Source of the DNA: Thermoplasmatota archaeon
GTDB taxonomy: Archaea; Thermoplasmatota; E2; JACPAO01; JAHFTW01
Reading direction: 5' to 3'
Assembly: GCA_049617695.1 (NCBI GenBank)
Contig: JBMZJT010000005.1
Span: 2,965 to 55,727 of the forward strand
DNA length: 52,763 nucleotides
Numbering within the stretch: position 1 is the first letter of the stretch; each line of letters starts with the position of its first letter. The position numbers were made by a program, and so were the translations under genes. Of the stretch, positions 20,791 to 42,425 are shown piece after piece. The notes under the pieces are model-generated. The model saw only the letters and a list, made by a program, of their open reading frames with translations. It was not told the origin of the DNA and did no database searches.

Positions 20791-20794
20791 TTCC

Positions 20795-22060: not shown

Positions 22061-22064
22061 CACC

Positions 22065-22307: not shown

Positions 22308-22332
22308 AGAACAACACAACTTCGAAGCATCC

Positions 22333-23415: not shown

Positions 23416-23455
23416 GACATCCTTCATCAAGACGCCCACATCGAACCAATCCGCC

Positions 23456-24043: not shown

Positions 24044-24045
24044 CC

Positions 24046-24420: not shown

Positions 24421-24461
24421 GGCGTGGAGCAGACTCAAGCGACCTGCCAAGCAATCGTCGA

Positions 24462-25073: not shown

Positions 25074-25178
25074 ACGCTCGAACGAATGCACTCCTTCATA
25101 ATCCGTGACCAACCGGTTGGCAACGTACGGCGAAAATCTTAGCAATCACGATATGAACTCGGCAACGTGGCCACGATT

Positions 25179-25643: not shown

Positions 25644-25680
25644 GACACGATTCAATAATCCCCAACATTGAGGACCCTTT

Positions 25681-28143
25681 GTGCCGCACCATGCTCATGA
25701 TCACGCACACGCCGACCACGAGCATGGCGAACACGCACACCGCTCCGTTTCACAACAGTGCGATCAGGACGCCAGTGGCACGTCGCTGAGAATCAACATT
25801 CCCGTCATCCTACCGGAAGGCTCTGATTGCGACGCCTGCGGCGAACGCATCGTAGAAGCCATGCAGGGTCGACGCGGCGTCCAAGATGTCCACCTGGACC
25901 GAGAGAACGACGCCGTGGTGCTGTGCCTTCACTACGACCCCAACCTACTCACCCTTGAAGCCCTCGAGCGGCAAGTCGAAGCCGTCGGCGGCCAAATCGG
26001 TACACAGTTCCAGCACCGCACCTGGATGGTGCGCGACATGGATTGCGCTGACTGTGCCATGACCATCGAGCACGTGATCGGGCGCCTCGACGGCGTGCAA
26101 TCCGTCGTCGTCAACTACGCAGCAGGGAAGATGCGCGTCGAATTCGACGGCAAGGCGATCCATGCCCGAGCGATCCAGAAAAAGGTCCAATGGCTTGGCT
26201 ACGATGTCCAGGAACCTTCCCACGGTCACGGCCATGGCGACCACGATCATGACCACGCCCACGGTGCCGGCCTCAAAGTCGCTATCCTGAGCGGCGTCTT
26301 CCTCGCGCTGGGCTTCCTCGGAGAGACCTTCACGGATCTCCCCTTCCGCTACTTGCTACCACTCTATCTTGGCGCGTACCTCACGGGCGGCTACGACGCG
26401 ACCCGGCATGGCGTCAAGGCAGCCATCAAACTCCGCTTCGACATAGAATTCCTGATGGTCGTCGCGGCCATCGGCGCGGCCATCCTTGGCGAATGGGCAG
26501 AAGGCGCACTGCTTCTCTTCCTGTTCAGCCTCGGCCACGCACTGGAGCACTCGGCCATGGACAAAGCCCGCCATGCCATGCATGCACTGGGCGAAATCTC
26601 ACCAAAGACCGCACGCGTATATCGCGATGGCACAGAAATGGAGCTCCCCGTAGCCCAAGTGCAACGAGGAGACGAAGTCATCGTCCGCCCCGGGGAACGC
26701 CTGCCGGTGGACGGCATCGTGATCCGAGGCCATAGCAGCTTGGATCAATCCGCAATTACGGGAGAAAGCATCCCCGTCGAAGCCAGGGCCGAGGCATCCG
26801 TGTTTGCAGGATCCGTCAATGGCGATGGAAGTCTGCGCATTCGGACAACCAAGTTGTCCAGTGAATCCACGATGGCGCGCATCGTCAAGCTCGTGGAAGA
26901 GGCGCAGACCCAGAAATCCTCCACGCAGCGATTCACGGAGCGATTCAGCCGCATCTTTGTCCCGAGCAGCCTCGTGTTCGTGGCATTGGTCATCGCCGTG
27001 CCAGCCATCCTGAACATGGCACCTGCGACCGCAATAGGTAGTCGCATCGGGCTTCCGATATCCGAATCATTCCTGCGTGGGATGACCATCCTCGTTGCCG
27101 CCAGCCCATGCGCCCTGGCGATCAGCACGCCGGCCGCGGTCCTGAGCGGCATCGCGCAAGCTGCACGCAGCGGCGTCCTCGTCAAGGGAGGAGCCCACCT
27201 CGAAAACCTGGGAACCGTGCACACGGTGGCCTTTGACAAAACCGGCACCCTGACCATGGGTCGACCAGAGGTCACCGACCTCGCTCCCTTGGATACCAAC
27301 GAAGTTGAACTCTTGACGTACGCGGCGGCAGCAGAGGAACATTCCTCTCATCCACTGGCAAAAGCCATCACGGCGCGCGCCGAATCTCTCGTCTTGCCGG
27401 AGGCAGGGGACCTTCAGACACATGCCGGCCGAGGCATCGAAACCCTCGTTGACGGGGAACCAATCCTCGTTGGGAATCTCAAGCTCTTCCCCGATGCGCC
27501 CGACCAAATCCAGTTGGATGTCGACCGATTCGAGGAGGAAGGAAAGACCACGATGGTCGTCAAACGTGGCGATCGCTTCCTTGGCGTCATCGCCGTAGCA
27601 GATCAAGTACGCCCAGAAGCTGCGCAAGTCTTGGCCAAATTGAAGGCCGGCGGCGTGCAACGCATCGTCATGCTCACCGGCGACCACGAACGCGTCGCCA
27701 AGGTCATCGCCAACCAAGTCGGCGTCACTGAGGTCCGCGCGAACCTGCTACCCGAAGACAAGGTCGCGGCCATCAAGGAATTGGCCCGGGATGGCCCCGT
27801 CGCCATGGTAGGCGACGGCATCAACGATGCACCTGCCATGGCCAACGCAACAGTCGGCATTGCCATGGCCGCCCATGGGACCGATGTCGCCATGGAAACC
27901 GCCGATGTCGCGCTCATGGCAGACAGCCTCGACAAACTGCCCTTCGCCCTCGGCGTCAGCAAATCCAGCCGGCGCATCATCCAACAGAATCTCTTCGTCA
28001 GCCTCGGGACCATTGCACTGCTCATTCCATTCGCTTTGTTTGGATGGGCTGGAATCGGGATTGCCATCATCTTCCACGAAGGCAGCACACTATTGGTCGT
28101 CGGCAATGCACTGCGCCTTCTGCGATACGGAGCCACCTCATGA
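25681..28143 (+). CDS. Heavy-metal-translocating P1B-type ATPase (Zn/Cd/Co; SPC/HEGST signature)
   Basis: His-rich N-terminus, HMA CDAC and CADC, TGES, SPCAL, DKTGT, HP, GDGINDAP, HEGST. Confidence 0.95.
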   Translation: MPHHAHDHAHADHEHGEHAHRSVSQQCDQDASGTSLRINIPVILPEGSDCDACGERIVEAMQGRRGVQDVHLDRENDAVVLCLHYDPNLLTLEALERQVEAVGGQIGTQFQHRTWMVRDMDCADCAMTIEHVIGRLDGVQSVVVNYAAGKMRVEFDGKAIHARAIQKKVQWLGYDVQEPSHGHGHGDHDHDHAHGAGLKVAILSGVFLALGFLGETFTDLPFRYLLPLYLGAYLTGGYDATRHGVKAAIKLRFDIEFLMVVAAIGAAILGEWAEGALLLFLFSLGHALEHSAMDKARHAMHALGEISPKTARVYRDGTEMELPVAQVQRGDEVIVRPGERLPVDGIVIRGHSSLDQSAITGESIPVEARAEASVFAGSVNGDGSLRIRTTKLSSESTMARIVKLVEEAQTQKSSTQRFTERFSRIFVPSSLVFVALVIAVPAILNMAPATAIGSRIGLPISESFLRGMTILVAASPCALAISTPAAVLSGIAQAARSGVLVKGGAHLENLGTVHTVAFDKTGTLTMGRPEVTDLAPLDTNEVELLTYAAAAEEHSSHPLAKAITARAESLVLPEAGDLQTHAGRGIETLVDGEPILVGNLKLFPDAPDQIQLDVDRFEEEGKTTMVVKRGDRFLGVIAVADQVRPEAAQVLAKLKAGGVQRIVMLTGDHERVAKVIANQVGVTEVRANLLPEDKVAAIKELARDGPVAMVGDGINDAPAMANATVGIAMAAHGTDVAMETADVALMADSLDKLPFALGVSKSSRRIIQQNLFVSLGTIALLIPFALFGWAGIGIAIIFHEGSTLLVVGNALRLLRYGATS

Positions 28144-29564
28144 AACACCTGTCCATCCTGCTTCTCTTCCTGCTTCTTACCCCTGCGGCGGTAGCCCAGG
28201 ATGATGGCCATGATCACGACGAGCCGGGCCTGACGGAGGAAGTCCGAACTACTCCGCCGTTGTTCTTGATGGCCGACGGCTCGTTGGTCGAGCAGGGCGG
28301 CAGCGGCCAGGAATGCCTGGCAGTGGATGCGCAGAGTGGCACGCAAACAGCATCGTTTGCAACAACGCTGGCAAACGCAACCCACCACATTGAATCGAGC
28401 ACCGTATCGCTCTCCTTGGCGTTCACAGCCAACAGCAACCCGGGCAGTGGCTTCCGTCTCGATGCAGCGCTTCAGCAAGGAAACGCGCCTTCGTCATCGG
28501 CGAGCAGGACGTATGGGCCGGGTGCCTCCGTCGGTAGCCCCATCAACCTCGCCTTTGACGTCGATGACGCAGAGCCAAGCCTCGGAGCAACGACGCTCAC
28601 ACTCACCCTTACTCCCACGGCCATCGGCGGCGCCTTGCCCGGCGTCCTGGACGTTGGCATCCAGTGCGGCCCCGAATCCAGGCTGCACGCATTCGATTAC
28701 GCAGTCTTCACGGAATCAGAAGGAGACCCCTTCGATGACGGCCACGGGCACGACGAGGAAGGCGAAATCAAGACGCTTTACGTCATCCTGATTGCAATCG
28801 GAGCGGCCATCGTCACGTTCCTCGCCGGCATTCTTCCGTTGATCGGCAAGGCGCTTGCCCCGCAACGGCTCCACCTCTTCCTCGGCATCACGGCAGGCCT
28901 CCTGCTCTCCATCGCGATGGTGGACTTGATTCCGGAGGCCATCCAGGAAGGAGGGGGAAGTGTCGCATGGACGGTTGCTTTGGGCATCTTGATCCTCTAC
29001 GGAGTCAAGCACCTAGCTGGGGAGACGCACAGCCACGCCGACCACAGTGAACACCCCAGCCACCATGCGCCAGATGCGGATGATGAGCACACCGACCAAC
29101 ATGCAGGACGCTTCGCAGTGGTCGCCTTCGGTGCGCTGTTGTTTCATCGCCTCGTAGATGGTTTGGCACTTCCCGGTGCATTCGCTGCGGGAGGCGATGT
29201 CGGGTTTGCAGCTAGCAGCGCCATCCTCATCCATCAATTCCCGGACGGCCTCGCAGCCGCGAGCATATTCCTAGGCGCCGGATGGCACCGCAAGAAGATT
29301 CTCCTCGCCGTGGCCGGCCTCGCGTTTGCAACACCACTGGGAAGTCTAGCCGGCCTTGCCTTTGCCGGCATCGACGGCGCACTCCCACACCTATTGGCTC
29401 TGGCGGCTGCGACATTCATCTTCATCGCACTAGCCGAACTTCTGCCCGAACTGCGAGCAAAGCAGTACCGATTCATCGTCGTCGTCGGTTTCCTACTCGG
29501 CTACGGCTTGACGTTTGGAATCGAACTCTTTGCCGAGCTGTTTGGAGGAGGACACGGCCATTGA
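28140..29564 (+). CDS. ZIP-family metal transporter with N-terminal exported domain
   Basis: Signal peptide, ~190-aa soluble domain, then AG.LL..A..DLIPEA, His-rich loop, H.LVDG, HQFPDG, FIFIAL.ELLPE. Confidence 0.85.
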   Translation: MKHLSILLLFLLLTPAAVAQDDGHDHDEPGLTEEVRTTPPLFLMADGSLVEQGGSGQECLAVDAQSGTQTASFATTLANATHHIESSTVSLSLAFTANSNPGSGFRLDAALQQGNAPSSSASRTYGPGASVGSPINLAFDVDDAEPSLGATTLTLTLTPTAIGGALPGVLDVGIQCGPESRLHAFDYAVFTESEGDPFDDGHGHDEEGEIKTLYVILIAIGAAIVTFLAGILPLIGKALAPQRLHLFLGITAGLLLSIAMVDLIPEAIQEGGGSVAWTVALGILILYGVKHLAGETHSHADHSEHPSHHAPDADDEHTDQHAGRFAVVAFGALLFHRLVDGLALPGAFAAGGDVGFAASSAILIHQFPDGLAAASIFLGAGWHRKKILLAVAGLAFATPLGSLAGLAFAGIDGALPHLLALAAATFIFIALAELLPELRAKQYRFIVVVGFLLGYGLTFGIELFAELFGGGHGH

Positions 29565-29567
29565 ACC

Positions 29568-29813
29568 ATGACGCCGGACGTCTCCCGACCTACATTCTGG
29601 CAAGTGTTTGCCAAAGCCAACCCGTGGATCTGGATCCCCCTCTTCCTATGGCTCACGCAAGTCTGGGCCATCTGGGACAGTGATTTCACGATGGAAGTGA
29701 CGATGCTCCAATTGCCGTTCGTGATGGCGTTCCAGGTCGTGATCTTCCTCATTGCTCGGGAACGAATTGTCGAGTCTGGGGCTTCGATGGATGAACGCGA
29801 AACCAGTAACTGA
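29568..29813 (+). CDS. Small two-TM membrane protein
   Basis: Starts 3 bp after the ZIP stop; two hydrophobic segments. Confidence 0.55.
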   Translation: MTPDVSRPTFWQVFAKANPWIWIPLFLWLTQVWAIWDSDFTMEVTMLQLPFVMAFQVVIFLIARERIVESGASMDERETSN

Positions 29814-30002
29814 ACAGGCCGTCAAGGCAGCCATTTGGAGGCGGGCCTCAAAACGGGACAGGCAGTCTCGGTTTCCATCGAGTGCCCCGGCCAGGCTCCC
29901 GTGGCGCCACGCAACCGAACCTTCCGCCATCATCCCCGACGACGCAATCAGCAGGTTCTGCGAACGCGACGCATTTTCTACGTGTCTCGCGGGACTGCCA
30001 AT

Positions 30003-30272
30003 TCAGCAATGCATCGGGCCCGAGCCGCGAAATTCGGGCAACAGGAACGTCTTGGCTCCGCGCCATGGTTCGTTAGGCCGTGATAGGCCATGCACGATGC
30101 CTCGGTTGAATTCCAAGAAGAGTTCTAGGTAGTGCTCGGCTTCATCGTCGCCGTCGAGTAATTTGTCGAGCGGGAAGCCGTATTCGGCGCATTTGGATAG
30201 GAGTGCTTGGGCTTCCTCAAGGTCATTCCAAGTCTTGTCGGGAATCTGGGGAGGTTGAGCCTCTTCAGTCAT
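30003..30272 (-). CDS. Hypothetical acidic protein
   Basis: ATG overlaps the stop of the HAD gene; plausible composition. Confidence 0.55.
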   Translation of the reverse strand: MTEEAQPPQIPDKTWNDLEEAQALLSKCAEYGFPLDKLLDGDDEAEHYLELFLEFNRGIVHGLSRPNEPWRGAKTFLLPEFRGSGPMHC

Positions 30273-30739
30273 ATTTCGCGCCCCTCCGTCACAGATTCAA
30301 TACGCTTGGGGATTGGCGGAAGTGTGCCGTCACGGAACAGTTTGGCATCGAGGAACTGGACTTGGGCGATGCGGGCAGCGGTCTGGTCAATTCGGAGGTT
30401 ATCCCCTACGTACAGGGAAATCCTTGCATCCCTCATCGCCTGGGCTTTCCACGCGGCCTGCGAGGTGCAATCCAGGCCCACGCGGGTAGGTCTGGTGATC
30501 ACCGGCAGACCTTGGCCCACAAATGCGCGCAGCCAGTACGATAGCGAGCTGGCATGGCGCGCATCGCGGCCTGTGATGATGACAACTTCATGGCCGGCGG
30601 CAAGGATTCTCCGGACCCACTTCACGGCGCCCAGTAGCGCGGCGCTGTTGGCCAACGTCCAAGTGGGATCTTCATAGTTGATGCGTGCGCCCTGCGGCCA
30701 AACGGACAGAGTGCCGTCGAAGTCGAATCCAATTCGCAT
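30269..30739 (-). CDS. Capless HAD-superfamily phosphatase (phage PNKP/5'-nucleotidase-like)
   Basis: IGFDFDGT (motif I), ITGR (II), K (III), YVGDN..D (IV). Confidence 0.8.
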   Translation of the reverse strand: MRIGFDFDGTLSVWPQGARINYEDPTWTLANSAALLGAVKWVRRILAAGHEVVIITGRDARHASSLSYWLRAFVGQGLPVITRPTRVGLDCTSQAAWKAQAMRDARISLYVGDNLRIDQTAARIAQVQFLDAKLFRDGTLPPIPKRIESVTEGREI

Positions 30740-30792
30740 ACTTGTGCATGCGTGGCCATGATGACGGCCGTCGTGGTTGGGGGCAGGCAAAG

Positions 30793-30984
30793 CTACTGCG
30801 CAGGGGGCTCATCTACACGGTAGACTTCGTCGTCTATCGGGCAGTATCCGCGACCGTCAAGGGTGCGGTTGGTGGGGCCTGGGCCGCCGGAATCGCGGAC
30901 ATAGACTCGCAACATAGGCCCGCCACACCGAGGGCAGACTAGGCGCGGGCGGTTCCCCATGCGCCTCCAGAAGGCCTTGAGCAT
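30793..30984 (-). CDS. Small zinc-ribbon protein
   Basis: CPRC...YCPID. Confidence 0.55.
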   Translation of the reverse strand: MLKAFWRRMGNRPRLVCPRCGGPMLRVYVRDSGGPGPTNRTLDGRGYCPIDDEVYRVDEPPAQ

Positions 30985-31262
30985 TTACAACAAGCCATGT
31001 TGAATGTGCCCATTACCGGAGTGATGTCTTCTCTTGGCAATAGGGGCAAGGAAACCTACGTAAACAAGTCACCAGTGATGAACAAAAACCTCTAATGTGC
31101 CTATTAGAATCGGCCTGCATGGGTTGCCGCTCGCGCGGCCAACCTGCTCGCCAAGCGATGGGTAGTCGGCGGCCAGAAAGACCACTGCGACCCCAAACGC
31201 CCGCTGAGTATCTTCACTCGCCCCGTGCGTGTACTCAAGAACGCAAGTCGGAACGCGTAAGT

Positions 31263-31913
31263 ATGCGTTGGGCGCGTTGTCCCAGCGTGAGCGCCACGAC
31301 AGTCACGGCTTCGAGTGAGTTGCGAAAGGCGTTCTTCGCAGGCTTGGCCCAATCATCGATGCAGCCAGGCGACATGGTGGAGCTCGCAATTGCCAGCAAC
31401 GATCCGGGAATCATTACGGCATTCACGAAAGAACTGGTCGACGCCGGCAACCATGTGGCTCTCGAACACATGATGGCGCGATTGATGTCCTCGAAGCAGC
31501 CGGATTCAAGACCGGCCCAGGTCGAAGTCCCCACCCCGGAACCGAAACGGCCGAGTATTTTGCCGATCCCGGAAGAATGGGACATCAAGGGACATCCTAT
31601 CGCCGGCATTTTTGATGGCTTTCACGAAGACCTGGACCAACCATACAGTACGACTGACTCCACAACGGTGGGCAAGCGACTTGCCAAAGCGTTCCAGGCG
31701 CTTGGCCCCGGCGAAGCCCTAACAACTCATCAAATTCATCGAGCAGGCCTCGGTTTTGCTGAGCTGCCAAAGGATCGCCCCGAATTGCGTCACACAATCC
31801 GCAACGGCCGAGCGCGTGCCAACGAGATCCTCGAAGAAAAGAAGCTAACAACTCAAGCCGTGCAGGTGCACGGCCGAATGTACGCGTACTACCTCCGGGA
31901 GGTTGGTACCTAA
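31263..31913 (+). CDS. Hypothetical protein with possible C-terminal winged helix
   Basis: Start uncertain (31263 ATG or 31287 GTG); ALGPGEALTTHQIH...RARANEIL...GRMYAYYL. Confidence 0.55.
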   Translation: MRWARCPSVSATTVTASSELRKAFFAGLAQSSMQPGDMVELAIASNDPGIITAFTKELVDAGNHVALEHMMARLMSSKQPDSRPAQVEVPTPEPKRPSILPIPEEWDIKGHPIAGIFDGFHEDLDQPYSTTDSTTVGKRLAKAFQALGPGEALTTHQIHRAGLGFAELPKDRPELRHTIRNGRARANEILEEKKLTTQAVQVHGRMYAYYLREVGT

Positions 31914-32024
31914 ACGAGCACCGGACTCCTTCGAGTCCGCAAAAATGGCCACACCTGGGGGCAGCAACCAGTAGCACGGAACCTGCTCCCCAGGAGGTGG
32001 CCATCACCTAGGCGGTGACAATCA

Positions 32025-32627
32025 GTGGAAGCCAGAACCCCGACAAAAGACTTGCCAAACGGCAACGGACGCGTTCCAGCCGTTACCATCAACATCTTCC
32101 TTGACAGCGGCGGCGCCACCGTCGCGCAAGGCCCTCCTGTTGAACCTCCCCGTCCGAGCCCTGAACCGGCCATCGATGATTTCCTGAACGGAGAAACCAG
32201 CGAGCCGGAAGACGACGCTGATGAGATCATCCTGCGCGAGCGGTTCTATGCTCTCGACATCGAGGCGGAGCACGTCATCGTTGCCCTCATGGATCAGCCA
32301 GGTCGATTCACCGTCAACCAAATCTGGGCAAAGCTACGCGAATACTGGGATACGGAAGACCTCTGGACGCCAGAAACGTGGGCCGCGGGAATCAAGCGAA
32401 GTACCGGCGGCATGAAACTGGAGCCGCGGTTCAGCTCGGCAGAAGACGCGGGCCGCCCCATCCCCAAGGCGATCGACCCAAGTGGCCTCCGGGAACGCCT
32501 TCGCAAAGCAATCAACAACGCGGCCATCCTGGAACACGGCAAGCCCGTTGATGTGTACCAAGAACCCGGTGGACAAGGCCGTGAGACTGTGTATGTCGTG
32601 ACCGCCCTGGGAGACGAGGAGGAATGA
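32025..32627 (+). CDS. Hypothetical protein with possible winged helix
   Basis: Pro/acidic N-terminal linker; ALMDQPGRFTVNQIW...LRERLRKAI...ETVY. Confidence 0.6.
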   Translation: MEARTPTKDLPNGNGRVPAVTINIFLDSGGATVAQGPPVEPPRPSPEPAIDDFLNGETSEPEDDADEIILRERFYALDIEAEHVIVALMDQPGRFTVNQIWAKLREYWDTEDLWTPETWAAGIKRSTGGMKLEPRFSSAEDAGRPIPKAIDPSGLRERLRKAINNAAILEHGKPVDVYQEPGGQGRETVYVVTALGDEEE

Positions 32628-32978
32628 ATGCCGCCTGCTCCCGACATGGATCGGTTCACCATGGAAGCCGTGGTTGACGTGCTCATTCACCACCCCGGCT
32701 ACCATACCGTCGTATCCACGGCGACCCGCGTCCTAACGGAACGCAAGTACGACGACATCCTACTATGGTTCACCACCAGGCGCTCCGGCGAACACGGGAC
32801 ACTGCTCCACCGAACTCCAGGAGAAATCAAAGCCGTTGAGCGTCGTCGCCGACGCGTCAACGACCTGCTATCCGCAGGCGTCCTCTACGTGGATCACAAG
32901 CGCAACTGGGTTGGCGAGCGCGTCCATGCCCGCCACCAGCAGGAAATCACGTTCCTGACGAAGCGAGTCCAGAAATGA
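32628..32978 (+). CDS. Hypothetical basic protein, possible winged helix, coupled to the transposase
   Basis: Abuts the upstream stop; VLIHHPGYHTV...VNDLLSAGVLYVD; stop overlaps the transposase ATG. Confidence 0.6.
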   Translation: MPPAPDMDRFTMEAVVDVLIHHPGYHTVVSTATRVLTERKYDDILLWFTTRRSGEHGTLLHRTPGEIKAVERRRRRVNDLLSAGVLYVDHKRNWVGERVHARHQQEITFLTKRVQK

Positions 32979-34288
32979 ACCCCTGGAGCAAGCTGTTTCG
33001 CAGCATCGTCGTCTGCATCACACTTCGCTGCGGGGCCCCAAAACCCACAGAATTGGCTCGCGGCGCCATTCATGCTGGGCAATCAGGTGCGAACTGGTCC
33101 CATGTAGAATTGGCAGGCCTCGCCTGCTCCCGGCCATCCAGTACCACGAGCACATGGCTGGCCAAACTCAGCGAACGCCCCCTCGAGGCGCTTTCATGGT
33201 GCCTGCAACTCGTTGCACGAGCCTTGGTCGCATGGGTGTCCGCGGACCATGATCACTACGTCCTCAGCGTCGACCAACACCTCGAAGAGCACCGCGACCC
33301 GCCCCCGAAGGAGCGACGCAGCAAGAACCCGGAGGCATTGCACAACTTCCTCGTGAAGAACACCAAAAAGCAAGGCGGCACCAAATGGGCACTACCATTG
33401 GCCTGCGGCCTCCTGATCTGGAAGCACAAGGGCCACGAATACCGATGGCCAATCTTTCTTCGATTCCTGCTCCCCACGCAGTACATTGCCACGAACCACC
33501 ACGCCATTTACACGCAAGCCATGGATGCAGTCGGCATCACGGCCACGCTCAGTGCCGACGCCGGATTCTCCTACCGCAGCATCGTCGAGGCATGGCTCGG
33601 GGAGGGGCGGCGCTTCGTCATTCGCGTGGCGTTTCGACGAAGCGGATGGCAATTCTTCTACGACGTCCAAGGGAAGCGACACAAAGTCACCACGTACATG
33701 CGGCGATTCGCCGAGCGCAAACCGCTTCCCCCGCCGTTCATCGTGAAAGTTCGTGGAACTCCCGTTCTGCGAAGCCGACGCATCAAATCGATACGGGGCC
33801 GCTTCTGGCCGGACGGCCCCCTTGTGAACATCACCTTCGTGGCTGCATACGTCGTTGTGAATGGCAAGCTGGTCTTCAGTGAGAAGCACTGCCACGTGTA
33901 CGTATCTCACAAAGGGCTTAGCGGGGAGGCGGCTCGGCAAGTTTTCCGGAGGAGGTGGCCGGTGGAGGTGTACTTCCGACAGGGGCGAGACGATCGCCCT
34001 GATTGGCGTGCCCACAATCGCAATCGATTCGAATTGTACATCGGACTCCACATGCTTCGAACCGCTCTTGGTTTGCTCATCCAAGCCACGATGACGGGCC
34101 AGGGCATTGAGGAACTTGGCAAGCACAAGGTTGGTCGATTCGGCATCCCGCTCGTCACGCGGTCCCTCCTGCACCACCACGAACACGGTCGAGTTGTGCG
34201 CAAACACGCGCCGGATCCGCCGCCGATCCCCATCGACGATGCGGTTCGCGAGAGCACGCAGCGCTGGCTCATGCTGCAGCAGGATTGA
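32975..34288 (+). CDS. DDE transposase, IS4 superfamily (ISH3/IS701-like)
   Basis: LSVD (D100), ADAGF (D195), FVIR, FRRRWPVEVYFRQGR (E331; variant of Y-2-R-3-E-6-K). Confidence 0.85.
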   Translation: MNPWSKLFRSIVVCITLRCGAPKPTELARGAIHAGQSGANWSHVELAGLACSRPSSTTSTWLAKLSERPLEALSWCLQLVARALVAWVSADHDHYVLSVDQHLEEHRDPPPKERRSKNPEALHNFLVKNTKKQGGTKWALPLACGLLIWKHKGHEYRWPIFLRFLLPTQYIATNHHAIYTQAMDAVGITATLSADAGFSYRSIVEAWLGEGRRFVIRVAFRRSGWQFFYDVQGKRHKVTTYMRRFAERKPLPPPFIVKVRGTPVLRSRRIKSIRGRFWPDGPLVNITFVAAYVVVNGKLVFSEKHCHVYVSHKGLSGEAARQVFRRRWPVEVYFRQGRDDRPDWRAHNRNRFELYIGLHMLRTALGLLIQATMTGQGIEELGKHKVGRFGIPLVTRSLLHHHEHGRVVRKHAPDPPPIPIDDAVRESTQRWLMLQQD

Positions 34289-34291
34289 GCA

Positions 34292-34321
34292 ACCTCAGAA
34301 CCTCATCGACCTCACTGAGGT
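34292..34321. repeat. Right subterminal ACCTCA x3 plus TGAGGT
   Basis: ACCTCA at 34292, 34300, 34309 and TGAGGT at 34316 (palindrome ACCTCA-C-TGAGGT). Confidence 0.75.
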
Positions 34322-34328
34322 AGCCCGA

Positions 34329-34340
34329 CGAGAAGTGCAG
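34329..34340 (-). repeat. Right terminal inverted repeat CGAGAAGTGCAG
   Basis: Exact reverse complement of 3763-3774. Confidence 0.9.
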
Positions 34341-34347
34341 TGAATGC
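34341..34347 (+). repeat. Right target-site duplication TGAATGC
   Basis: Identical to 3756-3762; abuts the right TIR. Confidence 0.9.
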
Positions 34348-34386
34348 GGCGCAACGGTGAAATGGTTGGAGCGCAGAAGCGGTGCC

Positions 34387-35298
34387 ATGAGGTGGGTTGC
34401 TGCCATCTGCATCATTGGATTGCTGCTGGCTGGCTGTACGGAGGAAGCTGCGCCGACGCCTGCAGCACCTCAGCCGGTGGTTCCGACCACCCCGCCGTCA
34501 GAAGATCCCGGAATTCCCGTGACCAACGAGACGGAAACCTCCGTGTTCCCGATTACGTACAGTCACCAGGATTGCGAAGCCATTGTGTTCATTCACGCCG
34601 TGGATTTTGCGACGGCAAACCAGCTCCTGCCGTTGGGTTACACGGCGGCTGACATGGGCTACTTGATGGACCTGCCCGCCAACATCAACCTGGCCGCGAT
34701 TGGCCTCATCACGTACACCTGCCAAGAAGATGATCTCGGCGTCGGGGCCCACACGCAGGCGGCGCTGTCCGTTTTCATCAATGCCCCTGTTTTGGAAGGC
34801 GTCCAGGCCAGCCGCGAGGAGGTCTTCATCAACGTCTACGAACTGCATCGCTTCTTTTCGGATGACGCCCAAGCAGCGCGTTACCAATTGGCGGGGTGGA
34901 ACGTCACCACCGGCCTGACGGGAGGCGTTTCCAACGTCATCGCGCCGCCAGCCGATTTGGATGATCATCGATTGCCACAGCCGGGCAGTGGCGCCTCGGA
35001 AGGCATCCTCAACGGGACGCAACAATGGATTGGCGGTGTGTCGGGCGCGACGGGTTTCCGCCTGAAACATGAACAGGTCCGCTTTTGGCAGGAGACCCCA
35101 GACGGGGTCAGCATGGTTGGGTTTACGCTTGACAAGCATGGCCGGGGCGCCGTCAGCCTCTGTCAATACGCGGAAGGCAGCCTCATCGCGCAAACCATTG
35201 GGCGGACGTCATGCCAACCCGGCGAAAACTTCGGCTTGACCGTCTCGGACTTCAACGTCGTCGGGACCATCGAACACTTCCCTGGTGTCAGCGCTTGA
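34387..35298 (+). CDS. Lipoprotein of unknown function
   Basis: MRWVAA..LLAGC lipobox followed by a Pro-rich linker. Confidence 0.75.
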   Translation: MRWVAAICIIGLLLAGCTEEAAPTPAAPQPVVPTTPPSEDPGIPVTNETETSVFPITYSHQDCEAIVFIHAVDFATANQLLPLGYTAADMGYLMDLPANINLAAIGLITYTCQEDDLGVGAHTQAALSVFINAPVLEGVQASREEVFINVYELHRFFSDDAQAARYQLAGWNVTTGLTGGVSNVIAPPADLDDHRLPQPGSGASEGILNGTQQWIGGVSGATGFRLKHEQVRFWQETPDGVSMVGFTLDKHGRGAVSLCQYAEGSLIAQTIGRTSCQPGENFGLTVSDFNVVGTIEHFPGVSA

Positions 35299-37292
35299 AA
35301 CGCTGGCTCATCCTCCTGTTGCTGGTGCCCGTCGCGACCAGTGGACCGCAACACGAAGCGGCCATTCTCGAAGCCCACGTGGACGCCACGTTCCACCCGA
35401 ATCTGGACCCGGCGAGCATGCGCGAAATCTTCGACGTGCTTCCAGCCGGGCAGGGCAGTTCCGGCGAGGGCTGTCATCATGCGGGCACATTCCGTTATGA
35501 GCCTGGAAAATTCCAATTCCAGGAACAACGCGAAGAATCTGGTTGCGGCGAAGTGCAACTTGAGGTCGACATTCCGGAGGGCGTGGATGAAATTGGCATT
35601 CGCTTCTTGACGAACCGGGTCATCGATTATTCCAGTCAAGATGAGCGTCTGCAATTGACGCCGGACAATCCGCAACGGCTGCGCATCTATGACGAGCGCC
35701 GGGCCTTGGTGCAGGAATTCACCGTCTACCAGGACCGTGCACCGCACGCCGCTGCAGATGTCGAATACGCCATTGTCGTGCCGACCGACGATCTAGGTCG
35801 CAACATGACACTTGGCTGGTATTTTGAGGACACGGGCAGCGGCCTGGCGCCTCTTGTCGGCAGTCAAACGGGCCGCCAATTCACGGCCCGCGTCCATGAT
35901 GTTCGTATCACGTTACGCGACCTCCCGGTGGACATGGCGCCGCCGGAAACGGTGCAATCCATCGAGACCAACGACGTGATTCTTGACACGATGGAAGCTC
36001 GTGTGACGATTCCCGCGAACGTCGCCGGCCCCGACGCGTGGCTCACGGTGCGCCACCTTGGCATTGTCATGCCGGAGCGCGTTTGGTCACCCAATGGGAC
36101 CTTGATTGACGACTTCGAACAGATTGTCACGGGCACGCAGCATCAATTGCGGTTGCAGGCGGCCGAAGCCGGCACGTATGTGGTGGCATTCAGTGGCAGC
36201 ACGCCGGTCCCGATTGTGCCACCGCCGCCTCCGACGCGGATTCCTTGGCTTCTGGTTGCAGCCCTGTCGCTATGTGGCGCCTTGTACGTGACCGCCACCA
36301 CACACCAAGGCCTGTTCTACCGAGACCATGCCCAGCACCAGCGGCGCACGGCGCAACGCAAGAACGTGGAAATCGCCCTTCTCGGCTTGACATTGTCCGG
36401 CTTGACCGGGTACACCTTGGCCACGCAACGGCAGGCCATGACGACCCTCCCCATCGAAGGCGTCGCCCTCGGCCTCTACGCCTTGTTGGCCATTTTCGGC
36501 TTGCTCTGCATCATTCACCTCGGCATCGGCGTCTTGCGGCGCAGCTATGCACGGGAACTGCGCCACGCCGAAGAAGTCGAACAAGCCAATGCCGTCCTTG
36601 CACGCAGCAACCGCGACCTGGAACAATTTGCCTACGTCGCCAGTCACGACTTGCAAGAGCCCCTGCGCAAGGTCGCCAGCTTCACCAGCCTACTCGACCG
36701 CCGCTACGAGGACGCCCTGGACGATCGTGGGCGCAAGTACGTCCACAACGCCCACGACGCCGCCGTCCGGGCCCGGCAATTGATCCGCGACCTCTTGGCC
36801 TTCAGCCGCATTGGCCAAGACCACCCCAAGGAACCCACCGATCTCAACGATGTGCTGCGAGACGTGCGCCAGGACTTGGCCGCATCCATCAGGCAAGCCC
36901 ATGCCAGCGTCGTCGTCGAGGAACTACCCACCATTGACGGGTCGCCGTCGCTGCTGCAACAGTTGTTCACCAACCTGGTCGGCAACGCCATCAAGTACCG
37001 CCACCCAGACCGACACCCCGAGGTGCACATCGTGGCCACGAAGGGTCGCCATCACTGGACAATCCACGTGCGCGACAATGGCCTCGGCATCGCCAAAGAA
37101 CATCAAGCCCAGGTCTTCCAAATCTTCCAGCGACTCCATGGACGGGGTAGCCAATACGAAGGCAGCGGCATCGGATTGGCCATCTGCCAGCGCATCACAG
37201 AATTCCATGGCGGGGAAATCGGACTCACGTCCAAGGCGGACGTCGGCTCCGACTTTTATGTCACATTCCCCATCCGGAGGGCTGATGGCTGA
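35295..37292 (+). CDS. Membrane sensor histidine kinase with large extracellular domain (Cph1-like kinase core)
   Basis: TTG start inferred; LEQFAYVASHDLQEPLRKV H-box, NLVGNAIKY, DNGLGI, FQRLH, GSGIGLAIC. Confidence 0.9.
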   Translation: MKRWLILLLLVPVATSGPQHEAAILEAHVDATFHPNLDPASMREIFDVLPAGQGSSGEGCHHAGTFRYEPGKFQFQEQREESGCGEVQLEVDIPEGVDEIGIRFLTNRVIDYSSQDERLQLTPDNPQRLRIYDERRALVQEFTVYQDRAPHAAADVEYAIVVPTDDLGRNMTLGWYFEDTGSGLAPLVGSQTGRQFTARVHDVRITLRDLPVDMAPPETVQSIETNDVILDTMEARVTIPANVAGPDAWLTVRHLGIVMPERVWSPNGTLIDDFEQIVTGTQHQLRLQAAEAGTYVVAFSGSTPVPIVPPPPPTRIPWLLVAALSLCGALYVTATTHQGLFYRDHAQHQRRTAQRKNVEIALLGLTLSGLTGYTLATQRQAMTTLPIEGVALGLYALLAIFGLLCIIHLGIGVLRRSYARELRHAEEVEQANAVLARSNRDLEQFAYVASHDLQEPLRKVASFTSLLDRRYEDALDDRGRKYVHNAHDAAVRARQLIRDLLAFSRIGQDHPKEPTDLNDVLRDVRQDLAASIRQAHASVVVEELPTIDGSPSLLQQLFTNLVGNAIKYRHPDRHPEVHIVATKGRHHWTIHVRDNGLGIAKEHQAQVFQIFQRLHGRGSQYEGSGIGLAICQRITEFHGGEIGLTSKADVGSDFYVTFPIRRADG

Positions 37293-37776
37293 GGCGTCTG
37301 TTCGCATTGTGCCGTCGCAGCGGCATGCGGCGCTTCTGGCCGAGCAGGTTGCGCGCCTGCGCCAGGAAGGACCCGTGATTTTGGTCAGCTTCATGCGCAC
37401 CTGCGACCATTGGCGCAAGGAGTTGGGCGCCGGCGAAGATTTGTTCTTCGTGGACGTCACAGGACACGGACCGCCGGGGATCGCCTTCGGCGTCGATGTG
37501 CATTACGTGGATTCGCCGGTGAAGCTGGAGTTGGTGGCACTCGTGTTGGACCGCGTGGTGCGCCGACTCGGCGGCGGCCAAATCGTGATCGACGATTTGG
37601 GCACGGCCTGCATGGTCAACAACGTGGGCGCGACCGTTGAATTTGCGCATCTTCTCATCAATCGCAGTCGGCAACAAGGTTGCCCCCTGCACCTTTTCCT
37701 CTCCGACGCGGCGTCGCCTGCGTTGGCAGATGCCCTACGCGGCTTGGCCGTGGACAGCACGGAGACTTTGGCATGA
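37285..37776 (+). CDS. Degenerate RecA/KaiC-like domain protein (DUF835/DUF7504-like)
   Basis: Overlaps both neighbours; FFVD, SP..LE, IVIDDLGT pattern without a Walker A motif. Confidence 0.6.
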   Translation: MAEASVRIVPSQRHAALLAEQVARLRQEGPVILVSFMRTCDHWRKELGAGEDLFFVDVTGHGPPGIAFGVDVHYVDSPVKLELVALVLDRVVRRLGGGQIVIDDLGTACMVNNVGATVEFAHLLINRSRQQGCPLHLFLSDAASPALADALRGLAVDSTETLA

Positions 37777-38171
37777 AACTGGACATTCTGATTGTGGACG
37801 ACGACCCGGCCGACATCGACATGTTGACGGATTTCTTGGCGGAGGCGCCCTTTGAAGCCGTGTACACGACGGCAGCCGACGGCGGCGAGGGGCTGGCCCA
37901 ATTGCGCGAGCATACGCCAGACCTCGTGATCCTGGATCTGAACATGCCGCGCATGGGAGGCCACGAAATGTTGGCGGCCATGCAGGAAGACGCGCAGATG
38001 GCGAAGGTGCCAGTCGTGGTGCTGACGACGTCGGATCGCGACGAAGACGTGGAAGCCTCCTTCATGGGCAAGGCGAAGGCGTTTGTTACGAAGCCCCACG
38101 ACGTCGAGGGCTTCGAGGCGCTTTTGCAGCTGCTTGAGGACTTTGCACGGGCCTACGTCTGGAAGAAGTAG
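37773..38171 (+). CDS. Single-domain response regulator (Rcp1-like)
   Basis: ILIVDDD, PDLVILDLNMPRMGG, VVLTTS, FVTKP. Confidence 0.92.
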   Translation: MKLDILIVDDDPADIDMLTDFLAEAPFEAVYTTAADGGEGLAQLREHTPDLVILDLNMPRMGGHEMLAAMQEDAQMAKVPVVVLTTSDRDEDVEASFMGKAKAFVTKPHDVEGFEALLQLLEDFARAYVWKK

Positions 38172-38231
38172 GTTCACTGACCCCAACGTCCGGACTCACA
38201 ACCTCAAATGGCTTGTCCGACCTCCGTGCCC

Positions 38232-39440
38232 ATGATGAGCCTGGTCGAGGAGGAACTGGGAGGCCCGACGGTCTTCAAGGACCTGGCCAAACTGGATTTT
38301 GATTACGTCCCTGAGGAACTGCCCAATCGTGATGACGCCATCAAATTCCTGGCGCGCACCTACCGTGGCTTGACCCAGGGAGGCACCCGCGAACACGCAC
38401 TCCTTTGGGGGAGCGTCGGCACCGGGAAGACCGTGGTCGCCAAACGCTTCGCCCGAGACTTCCAAAGCGTCCTGCAGAAGCAAGGCAAGCGCTTCGAGTA
38501 CGTTCACGTCAACTGCCGCCGCCGCAAGAGCAGCAGCCTGGCCATGCTCGGCATCCTGAACCACTTCGAACCCCACTACCCCGAACGTGGTTTCAGTGTC
38601 GGCGAAATGATGCGCGACCTGCGCAAACACCTGGAACGCCGCGACTGCCACGTCATGGTCATCCTGGACGAGGTAGACGCCCTCCTGCGCGCCGACGGCA
38701 GCAACCTCGTCTACGACCTGACTCGATTCAACGACGAAGTCGGCCAACAATGGGTCGGCATCAGCCTCGTGCTGATCAGCCAACAAATGGTGCTGGACCA
38801 ACTTGACGACGCGGCACTCTCCACGTTCAAGCGCAGCAACGTCTACGAAACCCAGCCCTACGGAGGCGACCAGATTGAAGCCATCATCGAACAGCGCGTC
38901 GACCTGGCCTTCAATCCCGGCACCGTGGACCACGAAGTCGTCAGCCTGATTGGGGATATCGCCGGCGAGCAATCCGGCGGCCAAGGCGGCCCTGGTGACG
39001 CCCGTCTCGCCATTGAACTCCTTTGGAAAGCAGGCGTCCTAAGCGACGACGAACGCGCCGATCTGGTCGGACCAGAACAAGTCCGCGCCGCCAAGGCCGA
39101 GACGTACTCCGTCGTCACGGAAACCAAGCTGCGCAACCAGCCCAAGCATCCCTTGCTCGTCTTGCTGGCCCTCGCCCGGCGCCTGTCACGCGACAATGCA
39201 GCGTACGCAACCACGGGTGAAGTGGAGAAGGCCTACGCCCTCATCTGCGAGGAACACGACGAGACGCCGCGCGGCCACACCCAGTTCTGGAAGTACCTCA
39301 AGCAACTCCAGGACGCAGGATTCCTGTACGCCAAACTCAGCGGCAAAGGCCAGGCCGGCACCACCCAGTGGCTCAGCATTCCCGACATCCCAACCAAGAT
39401 CCTGGAAGCCAAGGTGCTGGAAATCCTGGGCGACCACTGA
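38232..39440 (+). CDS. cdc6: Orc1/Cdc6 replication initiation protein
   Basis: DYVPEELPNR, GSVGTGKT, VNC, ILDEVD, GDARLAIELL, C-terminal wHTH. Confidence 0.93.
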   Translation: MMSLVEEELGGPTVFKDLAKLDFDYVPEELPNRDDAIKFLARTYRGLTQGGTREHALLWGSVGTGKTVVAKRFARDFQSVLQKQGKRFEYVHVNCRRRKSSSLAMLGILNHFEPHYPERGFSVGEMMRDLRKHLERRDCHVMVILDEVDALLRADGSNLVYDLTRFNDEVGQQWVGISLVLISQQMVLDQLDDAALSTFKRSNVYETQPYGGDQIEAIIEQRVDLAFNPGTVDHEVVSLIGDIAGEQSGGQGGPGDARLAIELLWKAGVLSDDERADLVGPEQVRAAKAETYSVVTETKLRNQPKHPLLVLLALARRLSRDNAAYATTGEVEKAYALICEEHDETPRGHTQFWKYLKQLQDAGFLYAKLSGKGQAGTTQWLSIPDIPTKILEAKVLEILGDH

Positions 39441-39470
39441 ACTCAAGCACTCGACCCCCGTCCCCGCGCC

Positions 39471-42425
39471 GTGGTCCTGCTCAACGCCTCCAATTCGCAC
39501 CTGTTCTGGAAGGACAAGGATCCGGTCCCCCTGGAAGGCAAACATGCGGCGAACTTGCTGGCGTTTCCCAGGGGCGACGAAACCATGGCCGCCGCGCGCG
39601 AACGTCTCCTGGACCTCGTGGGCGAAGCCGGCGACGACCCCGACGCCCACCCATTGGCCAAGGTGCTCGAGATCGGCGAGCCGTTGCACTACGAATCGTT
39701 CTGGGATCATGGCCGCCGGCGTGAAGTCCTCCCCGTCGCCGCCAAGCGACCCTACTGGGTGCCCGACGTCTCGGACAGTCTGTTCTTCGACCATGGATTC
39801 TACACGGTCGAGCATGACATTCCGTACATCGAACGGACCCTGGCCGATTTGTGTGCCGAAAAGGATTGGTGGATGTGGGACACCAAGGGTCGCAAGCAGG
39901 ACCTCGATGTTCTGACATACGACATCGAGACGACGCAGTACGGCGAAGGCAAGCGCGAAGTCCCCGTCGACATGATTGGCTGGACCGATTTCTCGGTGCA
40001 ATACGAGGCAAGCAAAGACCTCGATACGGAGGCCTTCGACTTCCGATTCCACGACTTGCCGCAGGATTGGGCAGACCGCGAGATCGAACAACGCATCGCT
40101 CGCAACGTCGATGAGGAAATGGACATGCTGATGGAATTCACCCAGCATGCCGTTCGCTACGACCTCATCGCCGGCCACAACGTCCTGGGTTTCGACAACC
40201 TACAGATTCGCGAGCGCATCCGGACGTTCCTGCAACGCGACGAGAAGCAGCAGAACCTCAGCAAGGGCATGCGGGATTGGTTCCAGGAATTCACGAGCGT
40301 CTGGAGTCGTCGCGACCGCAGCTTCCACTTCGGCACCAGCAGCGACATCTGCGTTTGGCATCCCGTCACGCTGGACACATTCCACGCCGCCAGGAAGTTC
40401 TACTTCTTCCACGACGATTTCACCCTCAAAGGCCTCGCGCCGTGGCTCGGCGTCGACGTGCCCGGCCGCGTCTACATGGAGCCGGACCACATGAGCCTGA
40501 CCGACCCAAAGACGCTCGAGTACAACAAGCACGACGTCCAGGAACAGGTCGGCATCACGCAGATGCTCATCGCGCAGGCACTTCCACTGGCTTTCACGGT
40601 CAACATGCCCCTCGACAGTTTGCTGACCGGGGGCAACACGAAGATGTGGGACCACATGAGTCTCCTGCGCGCCCGTCGGCGCCGGCGCATCATGCCGGCC
40701 ACCTGCCGCGCTCAGGGAATCGCCCATGCCATTCATCGACACGTTGGCAAGAGCTTCCCGACCCGCGAGGAAGTCGCCGAGGCGGCGTTGTCCATCCCGG
40801 AATCGGATCGGCAATCCGCCAAGGAATTCATCCGCGTCGCCAAGCAAGGCCCCGAAATGCCGTTCTGGTGCGAACACCCGGGCATCATCGTGCGCCCCGG
40901 GGCACCAAAGGAAAATCCGCACGGCTATGCCATCGTGGGCGGCCTGACGCTGAAGCCCGACTCCGATCTTCAAAGCCATTTCACACCGTGGTACCACGTC
41001 GTCGAAGCCGACGTCGGAGCCATGTATCCAACGATTCTCAAGGCCCGCAACCTGACCGCTGACACCGTCCAACCAGCCAAGGCCGACGAAGAGGCCGACG
41101 ACTGGATTTGGCTCATGGATCTCGATCCTGAATTCACCCAAAGTGGCCGATACCAGGTTCGCAAAGCGACCGAGGATGACGACTTCACCGGCGGCCGCGG
41201 ATGGCTCATCGGTGTCAAACACGCCAAGGAACCCGGCACCGTCAACCAAGCGATGACCGGCATCCTGCACACAATTCAGCAGGTCAAGGACGCCCGCGCC
41301 CGGGCCAAGCGGGAAGGCGCCAGCAAGGACGACATTCGCATTCTGGACATGACCTACGCCAGCCTCAAGGCGGCGCGCAACGCAGGCACCCACGGCATCC
41401 TGGTGGCGGTCAATGTGAGTTGCCGCCAGTTCAATGTCTGGGGTGGCGCCAACATCACGACGATTGGCCAGCAAGTTCTGCATGACACGCGCCGTGAATT
41501 CGAGAAGAAAGGCATCCGCGTGGTGTATGGCGACACGGACGGCATCTACCTGGGTTGCAGCAAGTCCGCTGGCAACCTGCCGCACCTGGCGGCGGCGCTG
41601 GGCGCAGACGTCGAACCAGAATCTGACAAATGGATCACGCTCCCCGACGCCGCCGTCGGGGCCGTGCAGGAAGCCAACGACAAGTGGCGCAAGGCCCTCA
41701 ATTATGATGACTTCGAGCTGGAGGCCGAGCAATATGATGCCATGGTCTTCGTGGTGCACAAGAACTACCTGAAGTTCAAGGCCAAGGGCGACGACGTCGT
41801 TCTGGAGACCAAGGGCAACAACTTCAAGGGCAGCGACAAGGCGCCGCTGGCCCAGCGCCTCTTGGGCCCGATCATGAAGCAAGCCCTGGCCGACGTGGCG
41901 CAGTGGGACGAGGAAGAGGATGCCCGCGAACGCATGAAGAGCGCCATCAAGCGGGCGACGCGGGACGCCGTGCAGGAGCTAAAACTCGGGGACATCGGGC
42001 AACACGACATCGTCTTGACGCAGAAAGTCGCCCCGATTCGAGGGTACAAGCCCAACGCCGACGGCAGCCTCAGCACCTTCGCCGTGCGGACCGCCGCCAT
42101 CGAGCATTTGCTTGGTGAGCAGATCACCGCCGCTCGGAAGTTCAAGTTCATTGTCTGCAAGGATCCCTTGCCCCTGTATCACAACCCGCAGGAACAAGAA
42201 CGGGTGCGGCAGCACATGGCGAACCAAGGTTACAACTTGGTCGTCAAGAAGCCCCGCAAGGCGAGCATCAAGCCCATTGAGTACATGTGGCCGGCCGAGA
42301 AGGTCGAGGACCACATGATTGACTTCCAGTGGTACAAGGATATGGTCGAGGCGTACATCAAGGGCGCATTCGGCTTTGATTCACTGGAGTTGGCAGTGCA
42401 GCGGGATCTCAGCTCCTGGTTCTGA
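39471..42425 (+). CDS. polB: Family B DNA polymerase (divergent)
   Basis: Exo I DIET, Exo II GHNVLGFD, Exo III YNKHD; Pol A DVGAMYPTI, Pol B KAARNAGTHG, Pol C YGDTDG. Confidence 0.9.
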   Translation: MVLLNASNSHLFWKDKDPVPLEGKHAANLLAFPRGDETMAAARERLLDLVGEAGDDPDAHPLAKVLEIGEPLHYESFWDHGRRREVLPVAAKRPYWVPDVSDSLFFDHGFYTVEHDIPYIERTLADLCAEKDWWMWDTKGRKQDLDVLTYDIETTQYGEGKREVPVDMIGWTDFSVQYEASKDLDTEAFDFRFHDLPQDWADREIEQRIARNVDEEMDMLMEFTQHAVRYDLIAGHNVLGFDNLQIRERIRTFLQRDEKQQNLSKGMRDWFQEFTSVWSRRDRSFHFGTSSDICVWHPVTLDTFHAARKFYFFHDDFTLKGLAPWLGVDVPGRVYMEPDHMSLTDPKTLEYNKHDVQEQVGITQMLIAQALPLAFTVNMPLDSLLTGGNTKMWDHMSLLRARRRRRIMPATCRAQGIAHAIHRHVGKSFPTREEVAEAALSIPESDRQSAKEFIRVAKQGPEMPFWCEHPGIIVRPGAPKENPHGYAIVGGLTLKPDSDLQSHFTPWYHVVEADVGAMYPTILKARNLTADTVQPAKADEEADDWIWLMDLDPEFTQSGRYQVRKATEDDDFTGGRGWLIGVKHAKEPGTVNQAMTGILHTIQQVKDARARAKREGASKDDIRILDMTYASLKAARNAGTHGILVAVNVSCRQFNVWGGANITTIGQQVLHDTRREFEKKGIRVVYGDTDGIYLGCSKSAGNLPHLAAALGADVEPESDKWITLPDAAVGAVQEANDKWRKALNYDDFELEAEQYDAMVFVVHKNYLKFKAKGDDVVLETKGNNFKGSDKAPLAQRLLGPIMKQALADVAQWDEEEDARERMKSAIKRATRDAVQELKLGDIGQHDIVLTQKVAPIRGYKPNADGSLSTFAVRTAAIEHLLGEQITAARKFKFIVCKDPLPLYHNPQEQERVRQHMANQGYNLVVKKPRKASIKPIEYMWPAEKVEDHMIDFQWYKDMVEAYIKGAFGFDSLELAVQRDLSSWF

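Follow-up and report, generated by a model that had tools for sequence, protein, structure and literature searches.

Three orphan genes coupled to a distant DDE transposase: probably a rare two-part insertion element in a marine archaeon

Elements of the IS4/IS701 type are the textbook one-gene transposon. In a 52,763-nucleotide (nt) stretch of DNA from a Thermoplasmatota archaeon (hereafter the window), a transposase gene distantly related to this type lies directly behind three open reading frames (ORFs) for orphan proteins, here called P1, P2 and P3, which raises the question of whether these genes belong to the transposase. A first-pass annotation had taken the three for winged helix-turn-helix (wHTH)-like accessory DNA-binding proteins of a possible multi-component transposition machinery. 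We consider it somewhat better than an even chance that the block belongs, as a resident present in one copy, to a small, undescribed clade of archaeal insertion sequence (IS)-like elements near IS701, with a coupled accessory gene; it is probably a rare two-part insertion element in a marine archaeon. The features of the block are as follows.

31263..31913, + strand: P1, orphan protein of 216 amino acids (aa), inside an ORF open from 31095
31914..32024, + strand: 111-nt spacer separating P1 from P2, in which a GC-rich hairpin of 7 bp (31922-31939) is followed by an A run
32025..32627, + strand: P2, ORF for an orphan protein of 200 aa with a GTG start; an alternative start at 32052 gives 191 aa
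32628..32978, + strand: P3, ORF for an orphan protein of 116 aa with LIHHPGYHTV and an RRRRR-rich stretch
32975..34288, + strand: DDE transposase of 437 aa, distantly placed within the DDE_Tnp_1 (IS4/IS701/ISH3/IS5) superfamily
34289..34342, + strand: probable right end of the element, with repeats and the point at which strain colinearity stops

Re-derivation of the ORFs returned the gene coordinates, the shared strand and the tight junctions as first annotated: P2 and P3 abut (TGA|ATG), P3 and the transposase gene overlap by ATGA, and P1-P3 and the transposase are co-oriented. Relatives of the transposase with ~15-26% identity were detected in four other genomes of the order, namely G032 (three full copies and a remnant), G022, G025 and G013 (one each), and a fifth genome, G008, held a 62-residue transposase fragment. 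At 7/7 full-length loci, in five genomes, a co-oriented upstream ORF ended at the transposase start or up to 14 nt inside it. The junction is ATGA in the window, at G032 locus L004 and in G013, TTGA in G025 and TAG|ATG in G022, and in the other two G032 copies the genes overlap by 11 and 14 nt. The transposase of the window is read in the −1 frame with respect to its upstream gene. The junctions (e.g., CAGAAATGAACC and CCAAAATGAGG) have the start/stop overlap typical of reinitiation, and no A6G-type slippery motif was seen in them.

The upstream ORFs of five of the seven loci (all three of G032, G025 and G013) form one family (A4, 22-45% identity). Searched against the order's 38 genomes, its profile matched at exactly five sites, each of them immediately upstream of a family transposase, and it retrieved only five proteins from 5.8 billion clusters. 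The upstream ORF of G022 encodes 281 aa, of which the C-terminal 30 residues are marginally A4-like (13/2000 shuffles reach the score). It closes a series of four or five abutting, co-oriented ORFs of 145, 91, (95), 228 and 281 aa before the transposase gene (L055:2378-4811), none with a Pfam match; because of this run, several genes ahead of the transposase are not unique to the window. The upstream gene set thus comprises one gene in G032, G025 and G013, three in the window and four or five in G022. By eye, the first two G022 ORFs contain Cys/His clusters resembling SWIM-type zinc fingers.

An AlphaFold2 model of a G032 accessory, built from five rows, reached a mean predicted local distance difference test (pLDDT) of 74, and ~90 over residues 68-165. 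It contained helices at 71-81, 88-96 and 100-107, a long helix at 123-141 and a terminal beta hairpin at 145-161, in line with the earlier sketch, in which a helix and a P-x-T helix cap lead on to a basic helix and a hairpin. The structure matches of the A4 C-terminal domain were almost all winged-helix. As modelled, the accessory of these better-sampled relatives looks like a two-domain protein in which a Pro-rich linker joins a small N-terminal domain to a winged-helix-like C-terminal one. Co-folding of the G032 transposase with its accessory scored 0.01 against a mark of 0.32, which is evidence neither way.

By its profile matches, the transposase is a weak and distant DDE_Tnp_1 member, nearest to IS701. 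The window protein matched DDE_Tnp_1 (PF01609) at 24.4 bits with a cut-off of 23 (E 2.9e-5), a thin margin, and the same model was matched by 7/7 aligned family members. The annotated triad D100/D195/E331 was invariant in alignments of five (A1) and seven (A2) homologues, the seven having 15-22% identity to the window protein, as was R327; P24, N40, S56, T57 and S59 were conserved in the N-terminal region of A2. The proposed F-2-R-3-E-6-R variant of the IS4 signature is present in the window protein as F324-x2-R327-x3-E331-x6-R338, and it is not a feature of the family, in which only R327 and E331 are invariant, F324 is Y in most homologues and R338 is not conserved. Four of the seven members matched the NCBIfam IS701 model NF049999 (best E 7.2e-8) and 2/7 matched NF033540 (4.6e-8), with weaker matches of the family to IS5, IS4 and ISH3 models. 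In the available text of De Palmenaer et al. (2008, PMC2266710), IS4 is defined by a complete motif, Y-(2)-R-(3)-E-(6)-K, by inverted repeats at the termini and by target duplications of 8-13 bp, and IS701 by ends of the form ---YACT-Y--YR and a target duplication of exactly 4 bp. The present family is not IS4 proper by this definition, since the motif is incomplete: residue E+7 is R in the window protein only and S and L in the others. For ISH3, the criteria used were the motif Y-(2)-R-(3)-E-(3)-R, ends of the form CRGT and duplications of 4-5 bp. The R at E+4 (R335) was found in the window protein only, with N and A in homologues, the inferred right end is without CRGT, and the ISH3 model NF033541 was weakly matched by 3/7 members (best E 2.6e-4). 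One strain variant in the cluster of the window transposase comprises 332 aa on a 1,983-nt contig and differs in 19 of its last 21 residues (312-332), including the position of the catalytic E; it represents a copy with a frameshift or else a mistake of assembly.

The family is rare and unevenly distributed. It was found in 6/38 genomes of the order, in 3/13 of one genus and in 5 of 401 genomes drawn from the phylum. G001, an 84%-complete genome of the same genus, contains none of the four genes of the block and shares DNA with the window only from ~36,600 onward. The three full G032 copies are 52-61% identical to each other and lie at different, unrelated loci, and in the remnant the catalytic E is replaced by G. 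Among 5.8 billion clusters, the window transposase detected only its own 97% cluster, and the A2 profile added only the G025 protein, so that the family amounts to two clusters there; a closer alignment (A3) retrieved the three G032 loci and nothing else. No transposase relatives were found in viral, plasmid (tblastn with window and G032 queries) or JGI metagenome collections, and PDB sequence searches using the A2 and A4 profiles yielded no meaningful match; their dTor rows, with 0 passing stretches, were discarded. The patchy distribution, the paralogues at different loci and the remnant with a replaced catalytic residue favour a mobile element over a host gene.

The three upstream proteins of the window were then compared with this picture. 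ALGPGEALTT, LMDQPGRFTV and LIHHPGYHTV, the strings on which their wHTH reading had been based, were all found in P1, P2 and P3, respectively. The pattern PG..T[TV], which was picked post hoc, had 36 matches in 695,505 residues (1,900 ORFs of at least 200 aa from the window's own genome), corresponding to a chance of roughly 0.6-1.1% per protein for P1-P3. All three contain it, and on these frequencies three neighbouring matches would not plausibly be due to chance. A close variant of the motif, HPGTTSV, occupies the equivalent spot in the G025 accessory. P1 apparently consists of a small N-terminal domain, a variable Pro-rich linker and a conserved C-terminal domain with ALGPGEALTT, and P2 seems to be laid out likewise.

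Variants of all four window proteins occurred together on 31-39 contigs. The P1 cluster comprised seven variants with 93-94% identity (called from 31374, MVELAIAS..., 179 aa), in which 11 of the 12-13 differences fell within residues 68-105, the Pro-rich linker. Five variants of P2 were 95-95.5% identical (its Atlas record begins at residue 10), and strain-variant identity was 95.7% for P3 and 96.6% for the transposase (variant on 35 contigs). The DNA identity of the strains was ~92.9% (596 differences in 8,341 nt), and all four proteins were conserved above that level, with the changes gathered in the linkers, a pattern that would fit folded domains under constraint resembling purifying selection. 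P1-P3 are likely to be real, related genes because of the rare shared motif, the co-occurring strain variants and a protein identity above that of the DNA.

For P1-P3, homologue searches detected no relatives beyond their strain cluster. In the 38 genomes of the order, P1 and P2 returned nothing but noise (E > 0.002), and P3 retrieved itself and three repeat-protein artefacts from 1.84 billion representatives. The latter, tandem-repeat proteins of 4211, 300 and 1618 aa, were rejected, as 12, 4 and 7 weak stretches had summed to their scores; the phmmer E of 2.8e-25 between the 4211-aa protein and the 116-aa P3 is a clear case of E-value inflation by tandem repeats. Pfam, NCBIfam, PHROG and PADLOC returned no match to P1-P3, for the C-terminal parts even at E <= 10. 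No P-loop or AAA protein was recognised among them in the library scans, in agreement with the annotated absence of an AAA ATPase. The single-sequence AlphaFold2 fold of P2 had a pLDDT of 36.6 and was unusable. The nearest named Atlas clusters of P3, which are winged-helix families (DsrD, MarR_2, Penicillinase_R, HTH_IclR and HTH_24), scored 0.82-0.84, below the 0.9 threshold for a lead, and the Atlas neighbours of P2 scored at most 0.80. The first-pass annotation thus held for the motif strings, and the helix, basic helix and hairpin that it read into P1-P3 are putative. Its idea of accessory genes linked to homologous transposases elsewhere was borne out for the architecture, with a coupled ORF at every full-length locus and the A4 family exclusive to this transposase; it was not borne out by sequence homology of P1-P3, whose role as DNA-binding machinery is putative.

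The ends of the block were sought by comparing public contigs with positions 26000-40000 of the window. A 63-kb and a 74-kb contig, from the marine-metagenome runs X5 and X9 of two studies, were colinear with the window over 26002..34342, with the 596 differences given above, and then continued in unrelated sequence. In run X2, which may be the source population, the match of one contig ended at 34340 and the contig ran on unlike the window, and in a second contig the match started at 34341 after 3,333 unlike bases. There is therefore a rearrangement junction 52-54 nt past the transposase stop, and as this is where the end of an IS would be, the junction marks the probable right end. Three direct (A/G)ACCTCA repeats precede it, starting at 34291, 34299 and 34308 (34291-34314; 8-9-nt spacing) and followed by ...CCCGACGAGAAGTGCAG, and the junction lies a few bases past ...GAGAAGTGCAG. 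Read inward, the right terminus is CTGCACTT... (CTGCACTTC... from the strain breakpoints), which contains the YACT of the IS701 end consensus.

The G032 copies share DNA from ~80 nt before the accessory start through the transposase stop, and their homology ends a few bases after ...CCGAAAAGTC (...AAGTC(C/G)TG). They also have in common the motif TCAGCCGAAAAGTC, ~170 nt past the stop, which in 2.9 Mb occurs nowhere else except at one site with one mismatch. Two of the three full copies immediately precede ribosomal-protein genes (by sequence, L10e and L44e), the remnant (contig C19) is upstream of an S12-like gene, beside a PIN-like ORF, and TATA-like boxes are found 20-35 nt past the conserved 3' motif. 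This placement could reflect a target preference or an outward promoter.

On the left side, a contig of run X14 was colinear over 26002..30903 (~92% identity) and then diverged, which may place the left limit of the variable block between 30903 and P1 or may be a mere drop in similarity. Two X14 contigs starting from 30934 and 31165 were short and of low depth and were not used for the left end; an X2 contig joining 30180 to 35449 matched over only 21 nt on a side and was treated as a chance match. A 30-nt loose end of X5 was not found in the window's own genome. Neither ACCTCA nor its complement occurs within 30600-32150, the best of six ACTT sites tried as a matching left end scored 11/18, a score reached by 24/308 background sites, and alignments of the reverse-complemented right end with the left region were at shuffle level. 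No empty site was found within the genus of G025, because the flanks are too diverged (~73% identity).

Small DNA-binding proteins encoded upstream of the transposase are familiar from two-gene IS, as InsA of IS1 and OrfA of IS3/IS911. An Arc ribbon-helix-helix repressor is described for IS605-family elements in the available text of a recent preprint (bioRxiv 10.64898/2026.09.24.754181). The window family resembles these systems in that a small upstream DNA-binding protein, here predicted, would be co-expressed as a regulator or end-binder; it differs in transposase superfamily, in DNA-binding fold and in the number of such genes, of which the window contains three instead of a single one. 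A frameshift fusion as in IS1 and IS3 is not indicated, since a slippery heptamer is not evident at the junctions. With IS701 and the IS4/ISH3/IS1634/IS5 group, the family has in common the DDE triad and the (Y/F)-x2-R-x3-E signature around the catalytic E. Unlike IS4, it has no conserved K/R after this residue, and unlike IS701 elements, which measure 1.4-1.55 kb, the present ones extend over ~1.8 kb in G032 and at least 2.3 kb in the window from P2 to the right end (~3.1 kb including P1). Members of the IS701/IS4 group are described as single-gene elements, whereas here a coupled upstream gene is constant, and in the genomes searched the family is confined to one archaeal order. The one-gene IS4, IS701 and ISH3 elements thus share the enzyme and not the partner, and OrfA of IS1/IS3 and Arc of IS605 may be seen as counterparts in function that belong to other superfamilies. 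In the IS231 subgroup of IS4, extra ORFs are likewise placed upstream of the transposase gene and inside the element; according to the available text (PMC2266710), these are varied cargo (resistance, virulence, metabolism), in contrast to an exclusive partner that overlaps the transposase start. [quoted passage not shown] In full-text literature searches, no account of a coupled partner of this kind turned up for IS4/IS701-type elements, and the word 'winged' is absent from the available text of a 2026 survey of archaeal IS (PMC13343696).

As a working model, a distant IS701/IS4-type DDE transposase would always be made behind an upstream accessory, to which it would be coupled in translation. 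In the window, the accessory slot would be filled by three fast-evolving genes with a common PG-x-x-T helix-cap motif, P1 and P2 being two-domain proteins and P3 the C-terminal domain only, as judged by eye; most likely, they would have arisen by duplication and divergence of the accessory. The products, for which production in cis with the transposase is assumed, are putative sequence-specific DNA binders; they would either bind subterminal repeats at the element ends and aid transpososome assembly or repress the promoter of the element, and cutting and joining would be left to the DDE enzyme. A more far-reaching version, which we regard as possible and not as probable, is that the clade is a new marine-archaeal IS family, an offshoot of IS701/IS4, whose transposition requires a winged-helix partner, the three partners of the window forming a heteromeric module for end recognition or targeting. 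DNA recognition would then have been split from the DDE enzyme and would diversify by gene duplication. The short tandem repeats and the following ...AAGT near the right ends (34291-34340 in the window, TCAGCCGAAAAGTC in G032) would be binding sites of the partner, and the position of three of the four G032 copies and remnants upstream of ribosomal-protein genes would reflect partner-directed targeting. A clade whose transposase is constantly coupled to a separate DNA-binding partner, here in three versions, would be a natural experiment on the ways in which end recognition, regulation or target choice can leave the transposase, and it would add a type of mobile element to the poorly known uncultured marine archaea. 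The practical value is limited, as the family is tiny.

Several results weigh against interpreting the block as an IS-like element with dedicated accessory genes. Neither terminal inverted repeats nor target duplications nor a left end turned up in the window or in the G032 copies, where the inverted-repeat searches stayed at shuffle level, and for lack of a matching inverted repeat or target duplication, present-day mobility is conjectural. The block is single-copy in its own 1.67-Mb, 85%-complete genome and has the same left-hand context in the ~7% diverged strain, so any recent movement is likewise conjectural. The window transposase matched none of the NCBIfam IS models at E <= 1. The 111-nt gap and hairpin separate P1 from P2, and because of this spacer with its hairpin and A run, P1 may be a separate transcript (the hairpin fold, at -14.9 kcal/mol and z -0.33, is no better than that of shuffles). 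Neither among P1-P3 nor between them and the accessory family was significant similarity found by BLAST, phmmer or hhalign: hhalign of P1-P3 against A4 gave probabilities of 0.2, 0.1, 0.1 and 0.09%, and the A4 profile had no match at E <= 0.01 in G000. The only pairwise signal, between the N-terminal ~75 aa of P1 and the G025 accessory (Smith-Waterman score reached by 0-1 of 1000-2000 shuffles, Gumbel p 3.7e-4), is marginal and was not confirmed by hhalign. Two relatives of the G025 accessory gave p values of 3.7e-3 and 0.045, always in the same register; the three partners are 49-52% identical to each other and are therefore not independent support.

Some of these results would also suit an immobile module that the host has domesticated as a set of regulators or nucleases, with the coupling reflecting a cellular function. 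The single copy, the lack of inverted or direct repeats, the left flank shared with the diverged strain and the better conservation of the four proteins than of the DNA all point this way, as does the single copy in most family-bearing genomes. However, a host gene would be expected at syntenic positions across the family, and these were not seen; the genes are patchy within the order and absent from a same-genus genome, the strain breakpoint falls exactly behind the transposase gene, the catalytic triad is intact, and G032 contains three diverged copies at unrelated loci together with a decayed remnant. We regard domestication as rather unlikely. Another way to account for the three upstream genes is as plasmid- or virus-type genes (a replication initiator or regulators of the winged-helix kind) or passengers of a small cryptic integrated element, in which the DDE enzyme would be the integration module only and the upstream genes would have no part in the chemistry of transposition. 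The extra ORFs that IS231 elements have between their left end and the transposase gene, in the available text of PMC2266710, provide a precedent, and the upstream gene sets do vary by lineage. Passengers would not, however, be expected to keep the stop/start overlap at all seven loci across ~20% protein identity; one accessory family was found only beside this transposase, and PHROGs, PADLOC and the plasmid and viral collections yielded no matches, which leaves this explanation decidedly unlikely.

Finally, P1-P3 could be strain-specific orphans that merely lie beside an old transposase gene, with a coincidental motif. No homology was shown between them and any accessory of the family, and P1 is set apart by its spacer. 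The ATGA and TGA|ATG junctions, a motif with a frequency of ~1% per protein that is present in all three, the recurrence of the coupled arrangement at each of the family's six other loci and the co-occurrence of the four genes on the same 31-39 contigs make an unrelated neighbourhood very improbable.

The G+C content of the block is the same as that of its surroundings, an Rfam scan gave no match, and promoter and terminator scans were at shuffle level, both hairpin folds being no better than shuffles. No tRNA gene or integrase was found within the window. The surroundings include the following features.

20720-29564: metal-handling cluster with a multicopper oxidase, a cation-efflux (CDF) protein, a plastocyanin-like cupredoxin, a P-type ATPase with HMA and a ZIP transporter
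30003-30984, − strand: three overlapping or abutting ORFs that diverge from P1
38208-39440: Orc1/Cdc6 gene with Cdc6_lid, Cdc6_C and AAA_22, 4 kb downstream

The metal-handling cluster, in which the P-type ATPase is of the heavy-metal type and the ZIP transporter has a long His-rich N-terminal part, was colinear at ~92-93% identity in three other metagenome runs and had no DNA match in the same-genus genome G001. The minus-strand ORFs encode an unknown protein of 89 aa, a 173-aa HAD-IIIA/PNKP-phosphatase-like protein (weak matches only) and a Cys-rich, zinc-ribbon-like protein of 63 aa. Downstream of the block, an unknown lipoprotein-like gene, a histidine kinase and a response regulator are followed by the Orc1/Cdc6 gene. 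The TniB match of the latter (28.5 bits) probably reflects shared AAA+ features, and with 80% DNA identity to the same-genus genome it is a host gene. It is a possible marker of a replication origin close to the variable region.

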